Virus record (IMG/VR): IMGVR_UViG_2778261139_000010
Direction: 5' to 3' (one strand)
Length of the DNA: 16,410 nucleotides
DNA from: a virus
Taxonomy: Duplodnaviria > Heunggongvirae > Uroviricota > Caudoviricetes
The position numbers were made by a program, and so were the translations under genes. The notes below the pieces were generated by a model that saw nothing but the letters and a program-made list of their open reading frames with translations, was not told the origin of the DNA and ran no database searches. This document shows, piece after piece, positions 1,605 through 7,084 of this stretch (position 1 is the stretch's first letter; every line of letters starts with the position of its first letter).

Positions 1605-1793
1605 GTGTTAAGCACTGATCGGTTTATACGTGAAAAAGAATGCGAAAAGCTAACAGGCCTTAGCCGCTCATGCCGCTACCGCCTGGAAAAGGCCGGACAA
1701 TTCCCATCACGTCGTAAACTTGGCGGGCGTTCTGTTGGCTGGTCTTTATCTGAGGTTTTGGCCTGGAAGGATAGCTGCAAGGCAGTTCACTAA
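1605..1793 (+). CDS. alpA: AlpA-family phage transcriptional regulator (excisionase-like HTH)
   Basis: 62 aa, GTG start with SD AAAGGGGG 5-13 nt upstream. Sequence pattern typical of AlpA/Vis small HTH proteins; position directly after int. Confidence 0.8.
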   Translation: MLSTDRFIREKECEKLTGLSRSCRYRLEKAGQFPSRRKLGGRSVGWSLSEVLAWKDSCKAVH

Positions 1794-1973
1794 AAAGACT
1801 GGCGGCACACAGCCACCACCAATCCATTATTGACCGATACCGGGATCTCGGTATCGGGAATAAACGCCATAATACTGAGGTATAACCATGATGAAATATA
1901 CGCCCGTACAGGGGCGGGGATTCGTTCGCCCTGGTGAATCTGAAAAGCCATGCTATAGGGTATTTTCAGGCAT

Positions 1974-2007
1974 AAAAAAAGCGGTCCCGATATGGAACCG
2001 CCTTTCT
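1974..2007 (-). terminator. Intrinsic terminator for the minus-strand small-gene transcript
   Basis: Minus strand reads GCGGTTCC-atatc-GGGACCGC (one mismatch in stem) followed by TTTTTTT; lies about 65 nt downstream of the minus-strand ORF ending at 2070. Confidence 0.5.
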
Positions 2008-2069
2008 GAACAATTAACCCGCTGCGCCGTATGTGTCAACAATCATAAGCCCGAACATGATAACCGTGA

Positions 2070-2273
2070 TCAGGCTGGTGGGCAATTACCTTGCTTGTTG
2101 GGGCCGTATTGTGCTGCCATTTTCATCCGTTCAGAACGTGAATATTTTTTTAGAAACTCATCAAGGACAAAAGCGCATGGAGCGAATCTTTCTGATTCAT
2201 GCTCGAGCGCCATATTTTCGTGCTCTCTGTTCGTTTTTTGCGATGGTGTATTGGTTGATTCTTTATTGGTCAT
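2070..2273 (-). CDS. Hypothetical small protein downstream of RHH-1
   Basis: 67 aa; ATG ACC AA start exactly 57 nt after the RHH-1 stop, same arrangement as 2787..3014 after RHH-2. Weak SD. No recognisable family. Confidence 0.4.
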   Translation of the reverse strand: MTNKESTNTPSQKTNREHENMALEHESERFAPCAFVLDEFLKKYSRSERMKMAAQYGPNKQGNCPPA

Positions 2274-2281
2274 TGTGTGTA

Positions 2282-2364
2282 CCTGTAAAGCAATGCGCCG
2301 TAGTACCTCACGCCACGGCGCTGATAGTAATTATTCTGATTCTTTGGCCTTGCGGCGCTGGCGG
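2282..2364. repeat. Copy 1 of an 83-nt near-identical repeat spanning the RHH-1 3' end and the downstream intergenic hairpin
   Basis: 3 mismatches in 83 nt versus 3023..3105, while the rest of the two RHH genes has diverged. Confidence 0.85.
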
Positions 2365-2510
2365 CGTTTGATCTCGCCTTTTGCTGCCGTAACTAGAAAT
2401 CCGGCGGTACTTTCGCCAGGTTCTTTAAGTTGCTCAATATCGGTCATTACCTCATGCGGGATTCTGACCGTTGTCATTTGTGATTTTGCGTTCTTTGCAC
2501 CTGTTGCCAT
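2331..2510 (-). CDS. Ribbon-helix-helix-like DNA-binding protein (RHH-1), candidate repressor
   Basis: 59 aa MATGAKNAKSQMTTVRIPHEVMTDIEQLKEPGESTAGFLVTAAKGEIKRRQRRKAKESE. Strong SD AGGAG 8 nt upstream. Beta-strand (TVRIP), helix, G-E-S turn, helix pattern. Paralog of 3072..3251. Confidence 0.65.
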   Translation of the reverse strand: MATGAKNAKSQMTTVRIPHEVMTDIEQLKEPGESTAGFLVTAAKGEIKRRQRRKAKESE

Positions 2511-2530
2511 TTCTGGTTCTCCTGATAATC

Positions 2531-2623
2531 GGTGTATTTCAGTATACGCAAAAAAAAAGATAAAAAAAGTCTTGCGGTGTATTTCACCTGAATGTAGATT
2601 TAAAAATAAAGGTGAAATACACC
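2531..2623. promoter_or_regulatory. Module-1 operator cluster: GGTGTATTTCA (2531), GGTGTATTTCACC (2576) and its exact inverse GGTGAAATACACC (2611), bracketing a sigma70-like rightward promoter (TTGCGG 2572..2577, 17-bp spacer, TAGATT 2595..2600)
   Basis: Exact repeats and inverted repeats read from the sequence. Promoter assignment is by eye from hexamer match and spacing. Confidence 0.55.
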
Positions 2624-2786
2624 CAAAACAACAACGCCCCGCAGTGATGGGAACACATACGGGGCGTCTAACCAAACCATTAATTGAGGTAACGATTATG
2701 GCTATAAAAGAGCATAGCTTACTCTTTATACACACACAAACGCCCCGGAAACGGAATAATCCGTTTCATAGTTCGGTTTTGTGTAC

Positions 2787-3014
2787 TCATCCTGGCGGGC
2801 GATTCTTACGGGACTTTAGCCGCCGTGGGCAGCTTGCTAAAAATGCCTCCAACGCGAATAGTCCAGGTTTCATTTCTATCGGTATTAGTTGGATATTCAG
2901 AGGATTAGCCAGTTCGGCTTCAAGGCGAGCACAGGTTTCTAACTGCCTTTGCCGAATGATTTCATCTTCTTGCGTCTGCGTGTCTTGTATTGGTGATAGT
3001 GTGTTGTTGGTCAT
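2787..3014 (-). CDS. Hypothetical small protein downstream of RHH-2
   Basis: 75 aa; ATG ACC AA start 57 nt after the RHH-2 stop. Central region looks coiled-coil-like (EDEIIRQRQLETCARLEAELA). No recognisable family. Confidence 0.4.
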   Translation of the reverse strand: MTNNTLSPIQDTQTQEDEIIRQRQLETCARLEAELANPLNIQLIPIEMKPGLFALEAFLASCPRRLKSRKNRPPG

Positions 3015-3022
3015 GATACTGC

Positions 3023-3105
3023 CCTGTAAAGCAATGCGCCGTAGTACCTCACACCACGGCGCTGATAGTGATTATTCTGATTCTTTGGCCTTGCGACGCT
3101 GGCGG
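3023..3105. repeat. Copy 2 of the 83-nt near-identical repeat (RHH-2 3' end plus intergenic hairpin)
   Basis: See 2282..2364. Confidence 0.85.
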
Positions 3106-3251
3106 TATTCAACTTCCCGCTTTAATGCAGCTGTAACAAACTGCCCTGTACTTTCGCCGGGCATTTTTACCGCCTCAACATTGTTCATAACTTCATGTGG
3201 AACCCTTGCCGCAACTGTTTGTGATTTTGCGTTTACTGCTTTTGTCGCCAT
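3072..3251 (-). CDS. Ribbon-helix-helix-like DNA-binding protein (RHH-2), candidate repressor of the rightward early operon
   Basis: 59 aa MATKAVNAKSQTVAARVPHEVMNNVEAVKMPGESTGQFVTAALKREVEYRQRRKAKESE. Strong SD GAGGGGGG upstream. Below the 60-aa cutoff of the ORF track, found by reverse-complementing the repeat. Confidence 0.65.
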   Translation of the reverse strand: MATKAVNAKSQTVAARVPHEVMNNVEAVKMPGESTGQFVTAALKREVEYRQRRKAKESE

Positions 3252-3301
3252 GTTGAGCCCCCCTCATAAAAAACAAATGCAGTATGCAGGAAAAAAAATA
3301 A

Positions 3302-3354
3302 GTGTTCAACACTTGACGTGTTTAACACCTCGATTTAAATTGGTGTTCAACACC
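3302..3354. promoter_or_regulatory. Module-2 operator cluster: palindromes GTGTTCAACAC (3302), GTGTTTAACAC (3318), GGTGTTCAACACC (3342), overlapping a sigma70-like rightward promoter (TTGACG 3313..3318, 17-bp spacer, TAAATT 3336..3341)
   Basis: Three copies of a self-complementary 11-13 bp site positioned at -35, in the spacer and just after -10. Classical repressor/operator geometry. Confidence 0.6.
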
Positions 3355-3443
3355 TTATTTAGGCAAGGTGTAGAAACGACGAAACCCCGCACTGTAGGAG
3401 CAGTAACGGGGCTTCTAACCAACAACGTAAACGAGGAGCCGTT

Positions 3444-3641
3444 ATGGTTGCCGTAAATCATATACCACACCTTGTACACACACAAACTGCCTTTGTGTGG
3501 CGTTTTCTGGCCCTGAGTGCCGGAGAATCTCAAATCATCCACGTAACCGCCTGGACGGAACGCGAAGCGCGTAGCCGTTGCCCGTCCGGTTGTGTTGCTG
3601 TATTTGCCGCCCGTATTCGTCAGGAGGTGCGCCATGATTAA
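3444..3641 (+). CDS. Small protein resembling Icd-like (host cell-division inhibitor-like) proteins of P1/P4-type elements; first gene of the early operon
   Basis: 65 aa, SD GAGGA 6 nt upstream. FVWRFLAL...TEREAR...VFAAR pattern recalled from Icd-like annotations; family call is from memory. Confidence 0.45.
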   Translation: MVAVNHIPHLVHTQTAFVWRFLALSAGESQIIHVTAWTEREARSRCPSGCVAVFAARIRQEVRHD

Positions 3642-3846
3642 TCTGTCACTTACTGACCTTAACCGCATTCAGTTTCGTGAGAAATTCACAGGGCAGCTAC
3701 TGGTCAATGTGGATAAAGGTCGCGTGGTGTGTAATTACCACTTACCAGATGAAGCAATTGTCGCCACAAGGGAATCATTACAGGAAATCACAAAACGTGC
3801 CGGAATGATTAACACGAATATTCAGGGGATGCTTTATGCACAATAA
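3634..3846 (+). CDS. Hypothetical protein (early operon)
   Basis: 70 aa from ATG 3634, overlapping the stop of the upstream gene (translational coupling). No recognisable family. Confidence 0.5.
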   Translation: MINLSLTDLNRIQFREKFTGQLLVNVDKGRVVCNYHLPDEAIVATRESLQEITKRAGMINTNIQGMLYAQ

Positions 3847-4075
3847 AACCACACCGGACGCAGCCGCCGAAGCCATCAAAACGCTGATGCACGCGCTGAT
3901 TGATATTTCTGTTATCGCGGACAGGGCACATAAGCACGCCACCAGTGAAACAGAATATGCCGGGGCTTTCGTTCCTCATTCGCTGGCGGTTATGCAACTT
4001 AGTGCTGATATGGCGCTGAATGAGGCCAAAGCTATCCTGATTGCTGATTGTGAAAATGGGGGGGGTTATGCGTGA
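3836..4075 (+). CDS. Hypothetical protein (early operon)
   Basis: 79 aa; ATG overlaps the upstream stop; AGGGG SD. Confidence 0.55.
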   Translation: MHNKTTPDAAAEAIKTLMHALIDISVIADRAHKHATSETEYAGAFVPHSLAVMQLSADMALNEAKAILIADCENGGGYA

Positions 4076-4289
4076 TGATCGTTTTTATTCCCTGAAACAA
4101 GAATTTTCCGGCGTATCTGATGATGCGGCTGATGCGCTTTCGTCAATGCCAGAACTTATTAGAGCGGCTTTTTTCTTACTTTCCACGAAAGAATATAAAT
4201 CAACTGGAATAGACGTACTGAATATTGCTGCCGATTATGCTGATTTCGTGACAGAAGTTATTTTAAGAAAAACGACGGACGGGGATTAA
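4068..4289 (+). CDS. Hypothetical protein (early operon)
   Basis: About 73 aa from ATG 4068 (GGGGGG SD; ATGcgTGA overlap with upstream stop). The ORF track's start at 4041 is TTG; ATG 4056 is an alternative. Confidence 0.5.
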   Translation: MRDDRFYSLKQEFSGVSDDAADALSSMPELIRAAFFLLSTKEYKSTGIDVLNIAADYADFVTEVILRKTTDGD

Positions 4290-4290
4290 T

Positions 4291-4524
4291 ATGCGAGATA
4301 TTTACCACAAAACAACAGATCGCGTATTTCTTGCACTTTCTCACAGTGAAAACATGCTGGAAATATTGCGCATATGGCTTGAAACACTTGGCGACAATGA
4401 ACGCGACAAACAAAAATCAAGAATTGCCACGGCATTAATAACGCTTCTTGAGCCTGTAATAAATGAGTTGCAGGAAATAGAGACATTACACGACCAGTAT
4501 AAAGCGCCCCACACCGGAGAATAA
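4291..4524 (+). CDS. Hypothetical protein (early operon)
   Basis: 77 aa; starts 1 nt after the upstream stop. Confidence 0.55.
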   Translation: MRDIYHKTTDRVFLALSHSENMLEILRIWLETLGDNERDKQKSRIATALITLLEPVINELQEIETLHDQYKAPHTGE

Positions 4525-4529
4525 AAATA

Positions 4530-4829
4530 ATGAAACTTAAATATTCTGGCTTAACTGCCAGTGGCAACACTCACCCTAAATTTACGCGCGGTGATATTTA
4601 CCGCGACCAGTACGGCGGCACGGTAATGATTAAGGGCGTGGCGGGACGGTGCGTAACTTACCGCCGTGAAGGTTACGAATATGATTGCGTGATGCCTGTT
4701 TATCAGTTCCGGCGTGATTTTTCTCTGGTACAGACCGCGCCGCATAACGTGCCCACCAGCAGGGAGAAAGCACGCGCCAATATTCAGAAGATGAAAAACA
4801 TGATTAACGGATTCAGGGGCAAGAAATGA
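4530..4829 (+). CDS. Hypothetical protein (early operon, immediately upstream of rep)
   Basis: 99 aa; GGAGA SD; stop overlaps the rep start (ATGA). Confidence 0.55.
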   Translation: MKLKYSGLTASGNTHPKFTRGDIYRDQYGGTVMIKGVAGRCVTYRREGYEYDCVMPVYQFRRDFSLVQTAPHNVPTSREKARANIQKMKNMINGFRGKK

Positions 4830-6223
4830 AAAGCGCACCGAACTTAAAAAAACAGCCTTACGACAAGATGACCGAAGTCATCATTTTTGCGGGTAGTGAT
4901 GCGTGGGCACATGCGAAACAGTGGCAGGAACAGGACGGGCGACTGGCTGGCGATAATGTGCCTCCCATTGTGCTGGCTGATGATCAACTGGATGAACTGG
5001 CAGACCTGAGAATCATCGACGAGGGGCGCTATTGTGTCCGGCTGTACAAGGCAGGCCACATCAGGCCATCAAATATTAATGCCATTGCGCACAAGCTGGC
5101 GGCGGCGGGCGTAACTGATGCGAATTATTACCCCGAAGGGATACACAGCCAGAAGCGGGAGAACTGGCGCGAATATCTGGAACGGGAGCGGGGGAAAAAG
5201 CCAGGGGAAGAACACCACCAGCGAAAAACCACGCTACCGATGAGCGTTGGATCTGCCGGATACGACACGCAATTAGATTACGTGGTAAAGGGGATTATTC
5301 CGGCATCGTCGCTATGCAGCATATACGGGGCAAGCGGTTCCTATAAATCATTCCTTGCGGGTTCGTGGGCGTGTCACGTTTCCACGGGCCGCCAGTGGGG
5401 AGGCCGCAGGGTGGCGCATGGCGCTGTTCTCTATGTGGTTGGTGAAGGCGGTATCGGCGTTCCGCGTCGTGTAAAAGCCTGGGAAGTTGTGCACGGTGAG
5501 CAGGTAAAAAATCTGTATCTGGTAAACCGTCCGGTCTTTCCGGCGGTCCCGCTTGATGTTGATGAAATGGTTATCGCTGCCCGTCAGGTGGAGCGGGAAA
5601 CGGGTAAACCTGTACGCATGATTATTCTGGATACGCTGGCGCGTTGCTTTGGTGGGAATGATGAAAATGATTCCCGTGATATGGGGGCGTTTATCCGTGG
5701 TTGTGACGAACTGAAACGACGCACAGGGGCCACGGTGCTGGTGGTTCACCATTCCGGCAAGGATGAGACGAAAGGCGCGCGCGGTTCCAGTGCATTTCGT
5801 GCATCACTGGATGCTGAATACCGGATACGCAGGGAGGACGCAGGAAGCGAAGCGCTGGTTATCTCATGCACCAAAATGAAGGACGCGGAGGAACTCAAAG
5901 AAGCCGCATATGACTTACGCGTGGTGGAGCTGTTTACCGACGCTGACGGGGAGTTAATCACGTCGCTGGTGGTGGTGGATAAGCCGCGCCCTCCCGTTGA
6001 ACTGGAGCGCATCGAGGAGGCAGGCAACAAGACGGAAAACCATACCGCACTATGGGGGTGCATCCGTTCACGCACACAGAACGGCGACAAGTGCACGATC
6101 CCGCTGTTACGTGATGACATGAAACGGCTTGGGTATGACGTGAAAAATATGCGGCGATGGTTAGCCAAACTGGAAAAAGACGCCGTGATTTACATTGATG
6201 GTGATGATGTAGGACCACTGTAA
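4826..6223 (+). CDS. RepA-like AAA ATPase / replicative helicase-type replication initiator (satellite rep)
   Basis: 465 aa. Walker A-like GASGSYKS and Walker B-like MIILDTLA. Followed immediately by an iteron array. No obvious primase motifs seen by eye. Confidence 0.7.
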   Translation: MKSAPNLKKQPYDKMTEVIIFAGSDAWAHAKQWQEQDGRLAGDNVPPIVLADDQLDELADLRIIDEGRYCVRLYKAGHIRPSNINAIAHKLAAAGVTDANYYPEGIHSQKRENWREYLERERGKKPGEEHHQRKTTLPMSVGSAGYDTQLDYVVKGIIPASSLCSIYGASGSYKSFLAGSWACHVSTGRQWGGRRVAHGAVLYVVGEGGIGVPRRVKAWEVVHGEQVKNLYLVNRPVFPAVPLDVDEMVIAARQVERETGKPVRMIILDTLARCFGGNDENDSRDMGAFIRGCDELKRRTGATVLVVHHSGKDETKGARGSSAFRASLDAEYRIRREDAGSEALVISCTKMKDAEELKEAAYDLRVVELFTDADGELITSLVVVDKPRPPVELERIEEAGNKTENHTALWGCIRSRTQNGDKCTIPLLRDDMKRLGYDVKNMRRWLAKLEKDAVIYIDGDDVGPL

Positions 6224-6423
6224 AAAGTGAGTAGCAAAAGTGAGTAATGGTGAGGTTTTTACAAAATATTAACACGATTACTCACTTTCTCACCTGTATA
6301 CATGCTCAAAAGTGAGGAGTAAAAAAATCATTATGAAACATACACATAAAGCATCAAAAAATATCAAGTGAGACGAAGCGAGACGCTTTAAAAAGTGAGG
6401 TGTAAAAGTGAGCATGAGTGAGG
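6222..6423. repeat. Iteron array, candidate replication origin: at least 9 direct and 2 inverted copies of AAAAGTGAG(G) interspersed with AT-rich spacers
   Basis: GTGAG cores at 6227, 6240, 6251, 6313, 6368, 6396, 6408, 6419, plus inverted copies at 6281..6294. Location directly 3' of rep matches the usual PICI/SaPI origin position. Confidence 0.65.
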
Positions 6424-6677
6424 AGATAACCAAAATGCGCAGAGACAGAACAGGGCCGAAATATAAAGCGTTAGACATGACAGAGCACGCCTTAAAGGTG
6501 GCAATCAGGGTAATAGACCGCCACGCGGGGGAAGGATACGCGAAAGCACATCCCGAACTGATAAGCGCATTCATGACCACGACGGCGGCAAATTTTGCCA
6601 CGCTGACAGAGCGGGAGATTGCCGAAGCGGAACAGGTAACAACCATCAACGTTAAAACCGGAGAGGTGGAATTATGA
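6414..6677 (+). CDS. Hypothetical protein
   Basis: About 87 aa from ATG 6414 (GTG 6408 also possible); stop overlaps the ssb start. The start overlaps the last iterons. Confidence 0.5.
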   Translation: MSEEITKMRRDRTGPKYKALDMTEHALKVAIRVIDRHAGEGYAKAHPELISAFMTTTAANFATLTEREIAEAEQVTTINVKTGEVEL

Positions 6678-7084
6678 CGGCACAGATAGCCGCTTACGGG
6701 CGGCTGGTGGACGACCCGCTGGTAAAACAGAGCAGCAAGGGCACACCGATGACTCTGGCGCGTATGGCGGTATCGTTGCCATGCAGCCAGGCACATGACG
6801 GACAGGCGACGTTATGGTTATCGGTTATCGCATTTGGCAAACAGGCCGATTTCCTGGCTAAACATCAAAAAGGCGATGTTGCCAGCGTATCCGGCACGAT
6901 GCAGGTAAGCCAGTGGACCGGACAGAACGGGGAAACGCGGCGGGGGTATCAGGTTATTGCAGACAGCGTAATCAGTGCCCGCGCGGCACGTCCAGGCGGG
7001 AACAGACGCAAAACCACAGGCACACAGGGTAATCAGCCACCAGCGGGAGGCGATGACCCTTACGGTGACGGTATTCCGTTCTGA
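6674..7084 (+). CDS. ssb: Single-stranded DNA-binding protein
   Basis: 136 aa; OB-fold-like N-terminal region, Gly/Pro/Gln-rich linker, C-terminal acidic tip DPYGDGIPF resembling the SSB DDDIPF tail. Confidence 0.8.
   Translation: MTAQIAAYGRLVDDPLVKQSSKGTPMTLARMAVSLPCSQAHDGQATLWLSVIAFGKQADFLAKHQKGDVASVSGTMQVSQWTGQNGETRRGYQVIADSVISARAARPGGNRRKTTGTQGNQPPAGGDDPYGDGIPF

Follow-up and report, generated by a model that had tools for sequence, protein, structure and literature searches.

In the 16,410-nt viral record IMGVR_UViG_2778261139_000010 of IMG/VR (Caudoviricetes), hereafter the window, five short open reading frames (ORFs), p1 to p5, occupy positions 3634-4829 between an Icd-like gene and the replication gene rep. 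We consider it probable that this string is the promoter-proximal, replication-side early operon of a capsid-forming phage-inducible chromosomal island (cf-PICI) of Escherichia coli, a phage satellite. By sequence comparison the module is an allele of an annotated island region of E. coli O157, an ordinary member of a known element, and p5 is identified as an orthologue of the regulator RgdR. The practical result is a correction: what had been taken for an operon of five unknown proteins can be read as one allele of a well-described satellite's early operon, containing a published virulence regulator of enterohaemorrhagic E. coli (EHEC). The novelty that remains is modest and lies in four orphan proteins, in RgdR within the island cycle, and in the meaning of a polymorphism that leaves p2 and p3 split or fused. 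These identities are well supported; the functional roles of p1-p4 and of RgdR in the PICI cycle are ones that we infer.

Assignment of the window to a capsid-forming island family

Gene content and chromosomal position assign the window firmly to the cf-PICIs, in the OI-51/CP-933C/EcCIEDL933 family. The window opens with a tyrosine integrase (Pfam Phage_integrase/Arm-DNA-bind_3) followed by the AlpA gene (Pfam scan), and the small-gene string is followed by rep, SSB (by Pfam) and a block of capsid, protease, portal, connector, HNH, TerS and TerL genes. The int, alpA and rep backbone of cf-PICIs is present (Phage_integrase/Arm-DNA-bind_3, Phage_AlpA and AAA_25), as is their capsid and packaging set without tail genes: the ORFs at 7599-13988 are collinear with an annotated island of NZ_CP146507, 96.6% identical to the window over 91%, and take their assignments from this collinearity. 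Annotated E. coli islands are 96.6-98.1% identical to the window over 91-93% and carry genes from capsid to TerL but no tail genes. The integration site, roxA/phoQ, is that of O-island 51 (OI-51)/CP-933C/Sp7 in E. coli O157:H7 (the Sakai Sp7 island was compared), and the island ends at about 14.9 kb, before phoQ, the flanking gene that closes the window (Pfam).

EcCIEDL933, the OI-51/CP-933C/Sp7 island of E. coli O157:H7, is the prototype cf-PICI; for EcCIEDL933 alone has it been shown that a helper phage induces the island and that the island is transferred in small capsids of its own fitted with helper tails. AlpA activates the genes of E. coli PICIs and is itself turned on by the helper phage (PMC6092414). 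The variable stretch just downstream of alpA in these islands has been reported as 'of unknown function', and the string described here is widespread, a megablast match to positions 3400-4900 occurring in 1365 of 5426 complete E. coli genomes, with at least 80% of the region covered in 294.

A tight unit of conserved genes

The genes from the Icd-like gene to rep (Table 1) follow one another closely. Neighbours overlap by 8 nt at icd/p1, 11 nt at p1/p2 and 8 nt at p2/p3, are spaced by 1 nt at p3/p4 and 5 nt at p4/p5, and overlap by 4 nt (ATGA) at p5/rep. A Shine-Dalgarno-like motif, purine- or G-rich and of the GGAG/GGGG type, lies 5-10 nt before every ATG, and a + strand scan found no terminator-like site with a strong stem within 3634-4829. 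This anatomy suggests that the string is co-transcribed and translationally coupled.

Table 1. Positions of the genes and sites discussed, with their best family matches.
Feature	Position	Strand	Product or length	Matches and remarks
alpA	1605..1793	+	62 aa	PICI activator gene; Pfam Phage_AlpA, E 5e-18; context, outside the operon
Candidate promoter/operator of the operon	3302..3354	+		Sigma-70-like TTGACG-17-TAAATT at 3313-3341 among three palindromes
Icd-like gene	3444..3641	+	65 aa	NCBIfam phage_ICD_like, E 5.8e-18; PHROG 29966/1743; first of the unit
p1	3634..3846	+	70 aa, pI 7.9	phrog_340, E 1e-23
p2	3836..4075	+	79 aa, acidic, pI 5.3	phrog_5146; phrog_2512 positions 1-76
G8 homopolymer	4058..4065	+		p2/p3 junction; encodes Gly of the p2 tail and a Shine-Dalgarno-like motif for p3
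p3	4068..4289	+	73 aa, acidic, pI 4.4	phrog_24341; phrog_2512 positions 78-145
p4	4291..4524	+	77 aa, acidic, pI 5.3	phrog_2196, E 1.3e-37; helical-looking sequence
p5 (RgdR orthologue)	4530..4829	+	99 aa, pI 10.1, net charge +11.7	DUF4222
rep	4826..6223	+	465 aa	RepA/AAA_25 helicase; PF13481, E 7e-44; phrog_2850, E 4e-256; last of the string

All five proteins have PHROG matches (E 1e-23 to 1e-37). Orthologues were sampled from IMG/VR, 80 loci being fetched through p5 and 28 through p1. Over the 80 loci, the median pairwise ratio of nonsynonymous to synonymous substitution rates (dN/dS) against the window is 0.17 for p2, 0.30 for p3, 0.35 for p4 and 0.27 for p5, and the orthologues of p2-p5 are under purifying selection (0.17-0.35). 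p1 is kept in 28 loci, where its diverged ungapped orthologues are too few for a dN/dS value. By these measures all five ORFs are real, conserved genes.

An initial annotation of this DNA had described 3634-4829 as five ORFs with overlapping or abutting junctions, forming a tight unit between the Icd-like gene and rep of a satellite. The ORF calls, the Shine-Dalgarno-like motifs and the dN/dS values bear out the ORFs, their sizes, coordinates and junctions; the tight unit stands as described, and the satellite can be named more specifically as a cf-PICI. It had also held that none of the five proteins has a recognisable family, which remains right for p1-p4, insofar as they have no known function, but not for p5.

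p5 is an RgdR orthologue by sequence

p5 matches the full profile of Pfam DUF4222 (PF13973) over residues 16-68, scoring 82.1 bits (gathering score 27; E 2e-23), and also matches phrog_285 (E 2.6e-31). It is equal in length to and 81% identical over 99 aa with ECs1581 (RgdR) of strain Sakai, and 91% identical to the allele of strain TW14359. It retains R20-G21-D22 and K35 (...KFTRGDIYRD... and ...MIKGV...) and, like RgdR, is encoded directly upstream of rep in an OI-51-type island. We identify p5 on these grounds as an RgdR orthologue, an allelic variant of the published regulator.

RgdR (ECs1581) is a 99-aa basic protein of OI-51 whose gene immediately precedes the replication gene (Flockhart et al. 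2012, PMC3378721). Type III secretion falls when rgdR is deleted; when RgdR is expressed, motility is repressed and the LEE1 promoter is activated, whether or not Ler is present. In purified form RgdR binds DNA non-specifically and with low affinity, and residues 20 and 35 matter for its activity (PMC3378721). The orthologues in that paper share more than 77% similarity over 99 aa; activities are published for ECs1581, C1493 and lineage variants, the alleles of lineages I/II and II being active too (PMC3378721). The effects on the host are seen even from a resident, uninduced island, and in complementation only the rgdR-containing region was needed for the type III secretion phenotype (PMC3378721).

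Among 56 RgdR homologues position 20 is variable (R, L, P, N, H or C) while G21, D22 and I23 are invariant, giving a conserved core x-G-D-I-[YF]-R-D. As position 20 varies, 'RGD' does not hold as a motif for the whole family. A profile scan of genome contigs with the DUF4222 alignment returned Shigella flexneri and E. albertii only, with narrow patterns that understate the wider family.

An AlphaFold2 (AF2) model of p5 was built on a shallow alignment of 56 sequences, close relatives only (77-96% identity, collected by word-indexed search). Its mean predicted local distance difference test score (pLDDT) is 77, rising to about 90 at residues 20-66, where five strands and a short helix form a small barrel; a basic C-terminal helix (residues 77-96) follows. 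The predicted fold of p5/RgdR, an SH3/Tudor-like barrel with a basic helix, is a prediction of this analysis and not a published one, and RgdR had no earlier structural or mechanistic model. The modelled barrel can be compared with FeoA, the UvrD/PcrA C-terminal Tudor domain, the CarD/CdnL N-terminal domain, Mfd, eukaryotic Tudor domains and Spt5 KOW, and a Foldseek search with the model against viral models returned DUF1653-like phage proteins. The predicted barrel and basic helix lead to hypotheses of architectural DNA binding, antagonism of H-NS or contact with RNA polymerase.

Four orphan proteins of narrow distribution

Scans against Pfam, NCBIfam and PADLOC gave nothing significant for p1-p4 or for the alternative proteins found in their place in other islands, the seven proteins scanned having no PADLOC match even at E up to 1, and the PHROG families matched by p1-p4 are all of 'unknown function'. 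Single-sequence and profile searches with all five proteins against PDB chains returned nothing below E 0.05. No match was found in 50,697 phage genomes, either by blastn with the region or by tblastn with the five proteins concatenated, so at that sensitivity the p1-p5 genes belong to satellites and not to sequenced phages.

p1 is a domain of about 60 aa (FTG-x2-LV...G-x-V) that is also found in 66-aa and 121-aa forms; it is present in about a quarter of related loci, always within the same Icd...DUF4222-rep module. p2 falls into 261 protein clusters at 90% identity, its named top matches all being from E. coli, and p3 into 76 clusters from E. coli and Shigella. p4 has only 9 representatives among 1.84 billion proteins (exhaustive HMMER search), with no longer fusion partner. 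p1-p4 are narrow families, largely confined to Escherichia/Shigella. p2, p3 and p4 are acidic (charges -5 to -6.5) and p1 is near neutral. p2 and p3 are predicted to be helical, an AF2 model of a fused homologue rendering p2 as a helical hairpin (helices 7-37 and 42-73, pLDDT about 65-72), and p4 looks helical from its sequence. A tandem array of paralogues made up of p1-p5 and ECs1579 was considered and rejected, all hhalign probabilities being 2.5% or less.

A constant end and a swappable front

We surveyed 73 IMG/VR loci in which the Icd-like gene and DUF4222 occur together. At its end the string is constant, with a p4-like gene and DUF4222 before rep, and its front is swappable, being made up of p1, p2, p3 and their alternatives. 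In 57 of 63 distinct cases (~90%) the ORF that directly precedes DUF4222 is p4-like, and DUF4222 lies directly upstream of rep in every related locus examined, although the type of rep varies from the 465-aa RepA/AAA_25 protein of the window and TW14359 to a 710-aa primase (Sakai/EDL933; L002 4601-6733), with 38-100% identity. This fixed place of RgdR before rep, in most cases after a p4-like gene, hints at a function in the cycle of the island itself.

At the front, p1 sometimes stands between p2 and p3, a p1-like insertion being found there in about 12 loci, and in other islands genes of the ECs1578, ECs1579 or phrog_1478 type replace the front cassettes. The shortest strings contain the Icd-like gene, the p4-like gene and DUF4222 only (L020 and L039). 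Deletion chimeras also occur: L104 852-1163 fuses the first 50 aa of p1 with the C-terminal half of p2, and P0304 joins the N-terminal 47 aa of p3 to full-length p4 and is found on 36 contigs, including one of 4.48 Mb.

The sequence ATTCAGGGG recurs at gene junctions, with an ATG 6-8 nt further on. In the window the motif ATTC(GT)CAGG(A/G)GG, again with an ATG 6-8 nt later, is found at icd/p1 (3618-3636), p1/p2 (3822-3838) and p5/rep (4809-4828). The recurrence of this motif explains the shared '...IQG-x-x-H-x' tails of unrelated proteins in related islands. The motif may double as a ribosome-binding site and a joint for cassette recombination, the latter role being suggested by its positions.

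Proposed role of the string and its alternatives

In the account that we favour, the Icd-like gene, p1, p2, p3, p4, RgdR and rep would share a single transcript that starts from the palindrome-flanked promoter near 3313-3341, and coupled translation would make the small proteins appear together with Rep when the island is induced by AlpA or the helper. RgdR would be an architectural or transcription-modulating DNA binder that uses both its basic helix and the SH3/Tudor-like barrel on which the mapped residues 20 and 35 lie. It would serve first of all the early programme of the island itself, beside rep and ori, with the effects on LEE1 and flagella a by-product. The acidic, helical p2, p3 and p4 would be protein-binding partners and not enzymes, p2 and p3 acting as one unit and p4 possibly as a partner of the basic RgdR, and p1 would be a dispensable accessory cassette.

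Several observations weigh against parts of this account. Promoter, operon and coupling are read from anatomy, and the palindrome set is not universal among related islands. The partnership of p4 and RgdR is drawn just from adjacency and opposite charge, and 6 of the 63 upstream neighbours are not p4-like. For p2 and p3 as one unit, the roughly 12 loci with a p1-like gene between them count on the other side. Structure prediction, which the initial annotation had proposed as a check, yielded the barrel model of p5, but the AF2 model of a C-terminally truncated natural p2-p3 fusion (51-sequence alignment) was poor (pLDDT 57, predicted template-modelling score 0.50), so that a joint p2-p3 fold is not supported structurally. 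The published phenotypes of RgdR concern host genes only and its DNA binding is non-specific (PMC3378721). Complementation that needs the rgdR region alone says nothing on p1-p4 (PMC3378721).

The initial annotation had expected helper-interference, anti-defence or host-takeover functions at this position. The corresponding alternative is that p1-p4, and perhaps p5, are conflict weapons that bind and inhibit proteins of the phage or the host and so serve in helper interference, anti-defence or host shut-off; we regard it as unlikely. Small, acidic and probably helical proteins are a common format for protein inhibitors, and the turnover of cassettes, the chimeras and the alternative genes at the same position are as expected of conflict genes. 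The families are narrow, mostly from Escherichia/Shigella, with no match in sequenced phage genomes, and host genes are indeed reprogrammed by RgdR. It counts against this alternative that the interference genes characterised in E. coli PICIs, such as rpp, are located downstream of rep. Nor is there a match of p1-p4 to any PADLOC defence model or annotated family; dN/dS is well below 1, with no diversifying selection over whole genes, and a single allele is fixed in hundreds of O157:H7 genomes. The prototype cf-PICI is reported not to block helper reproduction (bioRxiv 10.1101/2022.09.08.507074). The PADLOC scan, the lack of phage-genome relatives and this report on the prototype leave the expected interference or anti-defence function without support for any of the five proteins. 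Host takeover fits p5 loosely, as RgdR raises type III secretion and lowers motility (PMC3378721).

It is rather improbable that p4 and RgdR are instead replication accessory factors for the adjacent Rep, such as an origin-binding or helicase-loading helper, with incidental effects on the host. DUF4222 stands directly before rep in every related locus examined, with an ATGA stop/start overlap in the window, RgdR binds DNA, and the p4-like gene precedes DUF4222 in 57 of 63 distinct cases. A specific partner of Rep would not, however, be expected to front unrelated or very divergent Reps, as RgdR does (465-aa RepA and 710-aa primase, 38-100% identity). The DNA binding of RgdR is non-specific, RgdR is active on host promoters from an uninduced island, and truncated 63-aa copies of RgdR exist away from any rep.

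A more speculative reading, to which we give somewhat less weight still, makes RgdR and p4 a transcription-reprogramming pair of the satellite, RgdR acting in the manner of CarD or Sso7d on RNA polymerase or H-NS-silenced DNA and p4 as its modulator, with the split or fused p2/p3 as a second, lineage-specific effector that changes the interaction of the island with helper or host. If this were true, host takeover would be a general function of the early operon of PICIs, and the module would contribute to differences between pathotypes.

Under the early-operon account the leads are modest, and none alters the understanding of satellites. The initial annotation had named the five small proteins as the likeliest place for unknown biology in the window. 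This holds for p1-p4 as orphans; it is tempered by the module being common (1365 of 5426 genomes), by its gene order being already annotated in O157:H7 and by p5 being published.

A guanine tract that splits or fuses p2 and p3

The G8 tract at the p2/p3 junction is the sole G or C run of at least 8 in the window, and its length sets the relation between the two reading frames. With G7 or G10, p2 reads through into p3 (CENGGVMRDDRF...), giving ORFs of 142-170 aa. With G8 or G11, the form of the window, p2 ends in ...GGGYA before its stop codon and p2 and p3 are split, and with G9 or G12 p2 is 86/87 aa long with a different tail. ATG 4068 is the likely start of p3, because it is kept at every tract length, whereas ATG 4056 shares the frame of p3 only when the tract is G8 or G11.

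All three frame classes are populated. The IMG/VR tracts counted were G7 in 14 cases, G8 in 22, G9 in 13, G10 in 3 and G11 in 1, and the full fused p2-p3 ORF (142-170 aa) is present in 14 of 73 loci. Tract length differs in 13 of 26 pairs of loci whose flanks are at least 99.5% identical. Of 268 complete RefSeq genomes with the window-type flank, 232 have exactly G7, 22 G8 and 9 G9. The O157:H7 genomes among those listed are all G7, with one annotated fused protein, and the O55:H7 genomes listed are all G8, with two proteins. In evolutionary terms the tract is a hot spot for indels whose states are stable within lineages.

Because hundreds of complete genomes show a tract length that is constant within each lineage, we rejected both sequencing noise and fast phase variation as explanations of the tract. 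That it is a contingency locus, switching p2/p3 between forms within a population by fast, reversible phase variation or by programmed slippage, is very improbable. The run is the only one of its kind in the window, it is polymorphic between strains (G7 to G11), and half of the near-identical pairs differ in it. It is nevertheless stable within lineages, and there would be no ON/OFF outcome, because both ORFs survive in each frame, p3 either being fused or retaining an ATG and a Shine-Dalgarno-like motif of its own. G runs are also poor substrates for transcriptional slippage compared with A or T runs.

p2 and p3 most likely act as one unit, because neither coding region is lost in any frame and a very successful clone has the fusion as its fixed form. 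phrog_2512, a 154-position profile, spans p2 and p3 together. The poly-G indel, split in O55:H7 and fused in O157:H7, offers a natural experiment indicating that p2 and p3 belong together, and a lineage marker in OI-51.

Candidate promoter, leader and antisense reading frames

The candidate promoter/operator function of 3302-3354 is suggested by its layout. The 11-bp palindromes GTGTT(C/T)AACAC lie at 3302-3312, 3318-3328 and 3343-3353, upstream of the Icd-like gene, and a search with this pattern found 3 exact sites and one with 1 mismatch, against 0.58 expected. The same triplet is found 101-142 nt upstream of the Icd-like gene in three related loci (L001, L003 and L019). In L039 a different triplet (CTGGAATCCAG/GTGGATTCCAC) is similarly spaced, a hint that operator specificities can be exchanged. 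Candidates for binding the palindromes are AlpA and a divergently encoded 59-aa YlcI/YnfO-like protein.

GC-rich hairpins (CCCCGC...GGGGC) followed by UCUAACCAA are found at 3381-3415, in the leader of the Icd-like gene, and at 2634-2667, in the leader of a truncated copy. The hairpin at 2634-2667 is more stable than shuffled sequences (z -3.0) and that at 3381-3415 is not (z -0.32). An Rfam scan of the whole window found no C4/CI-type RNA at E up to 1, with two chance-level matches elsewhere. A C4/CI-type leader RNA upstream of the Icd-like gene was rejected, there being no Rfam match and the 3381-3415 fold being no better than shuffled.

Between alpA and the Icd-like gene, the minus strand of 2070-3251 carries a pair of small genes in two tandem copies. 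Each pair encodes a 59-aa YlcI/YnfO-family protein (phrog_949) and a 67-75-aa hypothetical protein; it also possesses an intergenic region of its own, in which palindromes occur, and a hairpin with TCTAACCAA after it. A truncated Icd-like start (MAIKEH..IHTQT) comes after the first copy. A 522-aa ORF at 1888-3456 on the + strand runs antisense across both copies; its translation is repetitive and of low complexity, and it is almost certainly spurious. On the other side of the string, a 168-aa ORF at 6290-6796 on the minus strand has no Pfam or PHROG match and lies opposite the + strand small genes and SSB start annotated in related islands; it is probably spurious.

Antisense ORFs within the string were also examined. 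The 95-aa ORF at 4551-4838 (-), opposite p5, is open in 49 of 51 orthologues, with dN/dS of 1.45 against 0.29 in the p5 sense frame. It stays open because it is codon-aligned with p5, so that only the rare sense codons TTA, CTA and TCA interrupt it, and with this alignment and its dN/dS we rejected it as a shadow ORF. The antisense ORFs 4286-4570 and 3809-3997 were rejected as genes because stop codons interrupt the former in 16 of 47 orthologous sequences and the latter in 5 of 7. The idea that some or all of p1-p5 are themselves chance reading frames in a regulatory or leader region can draw on their shortness, on their lack of annotated function and on the spurious 522-aa ORF nearby, which shows that long open frames can arise locally, but purifying selection confined to the sense frames, a Shine-Dalgarno-like motif at each start, strong PHROG matches, a gene order kept in more than 100 loci and published genetics for p5 leave it with practically no credence.

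Comparison with known systems

In the early operon of satellite P4 and in phage P1 immI (c4 RNA-icd-ant), a short Icd-type gene heads a series of small coupled genes, with a structured leader upstream. These strings end in or near a replication or antirepressor function, a likeness to the string of the window. The proteins of the P4 left (early) operon and of P1 immI do not match p1-p5, Rfam gives no C4/CI-type RNA in the window, and tblastn and blastn against phage genomes gave no match. According to the authors who described the PICIs, P4 and the PICIs are independent lineages (PMC6092414).

With the E. coli PICIs and EcCIEDL933 (PMC6092414) the window shares the int-alpA-...-rep backbone, the capsid and packaging module without tail genes, a size of about 15 kb and the presence of rgdR. 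The Sakai/EDL933 island differs in having ECs1578-1580 in place of p1-p3 and a 710-aa primase rep instead of the 465-aa RepA type. The small-gene set of the window matches that of the TW14359-type island rather than that of Sakai/EDL933, except that p2 and p3 are split in the window and fused in TW14359.

In the OI-51 variant of the O157:H7 lineage I/II strain TW14359 (NC_013008 1538554-1541338) the gene order is identical to that of the window, with identities of 100% for p1, 97% for p2, 84% for p3, 87% for p4, 91% for DUF4222/RgdR and 95% for RepA. The TW14359 tract is G7 and p2 and p3 form a single 154-aa protein (WP_000551675), whereas the G8 tract of the window leaves two proteins. Downstream, TW14359 has another capsid and packaging module (major capsid, decoration protein and TerS) than the window, and upstream it is without the tandem minus-strand YlcI/YnfO cassettes that the window has.

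p5 shares with RgdR of OI-51 the length of 99 aa, DUF4222, RGD at 20-22 with K35, the position before rep and the roxA/phoQ site. Its predicted barrel invites comparison, on the one hand, with the Tudor-like domains that interact with RNA polymerase (CarD/CdnL N-terminal, Mfd RID and UvrD/PcrA C-terminal) and, on the other, with Sso7d-like SH3 DNA binders.

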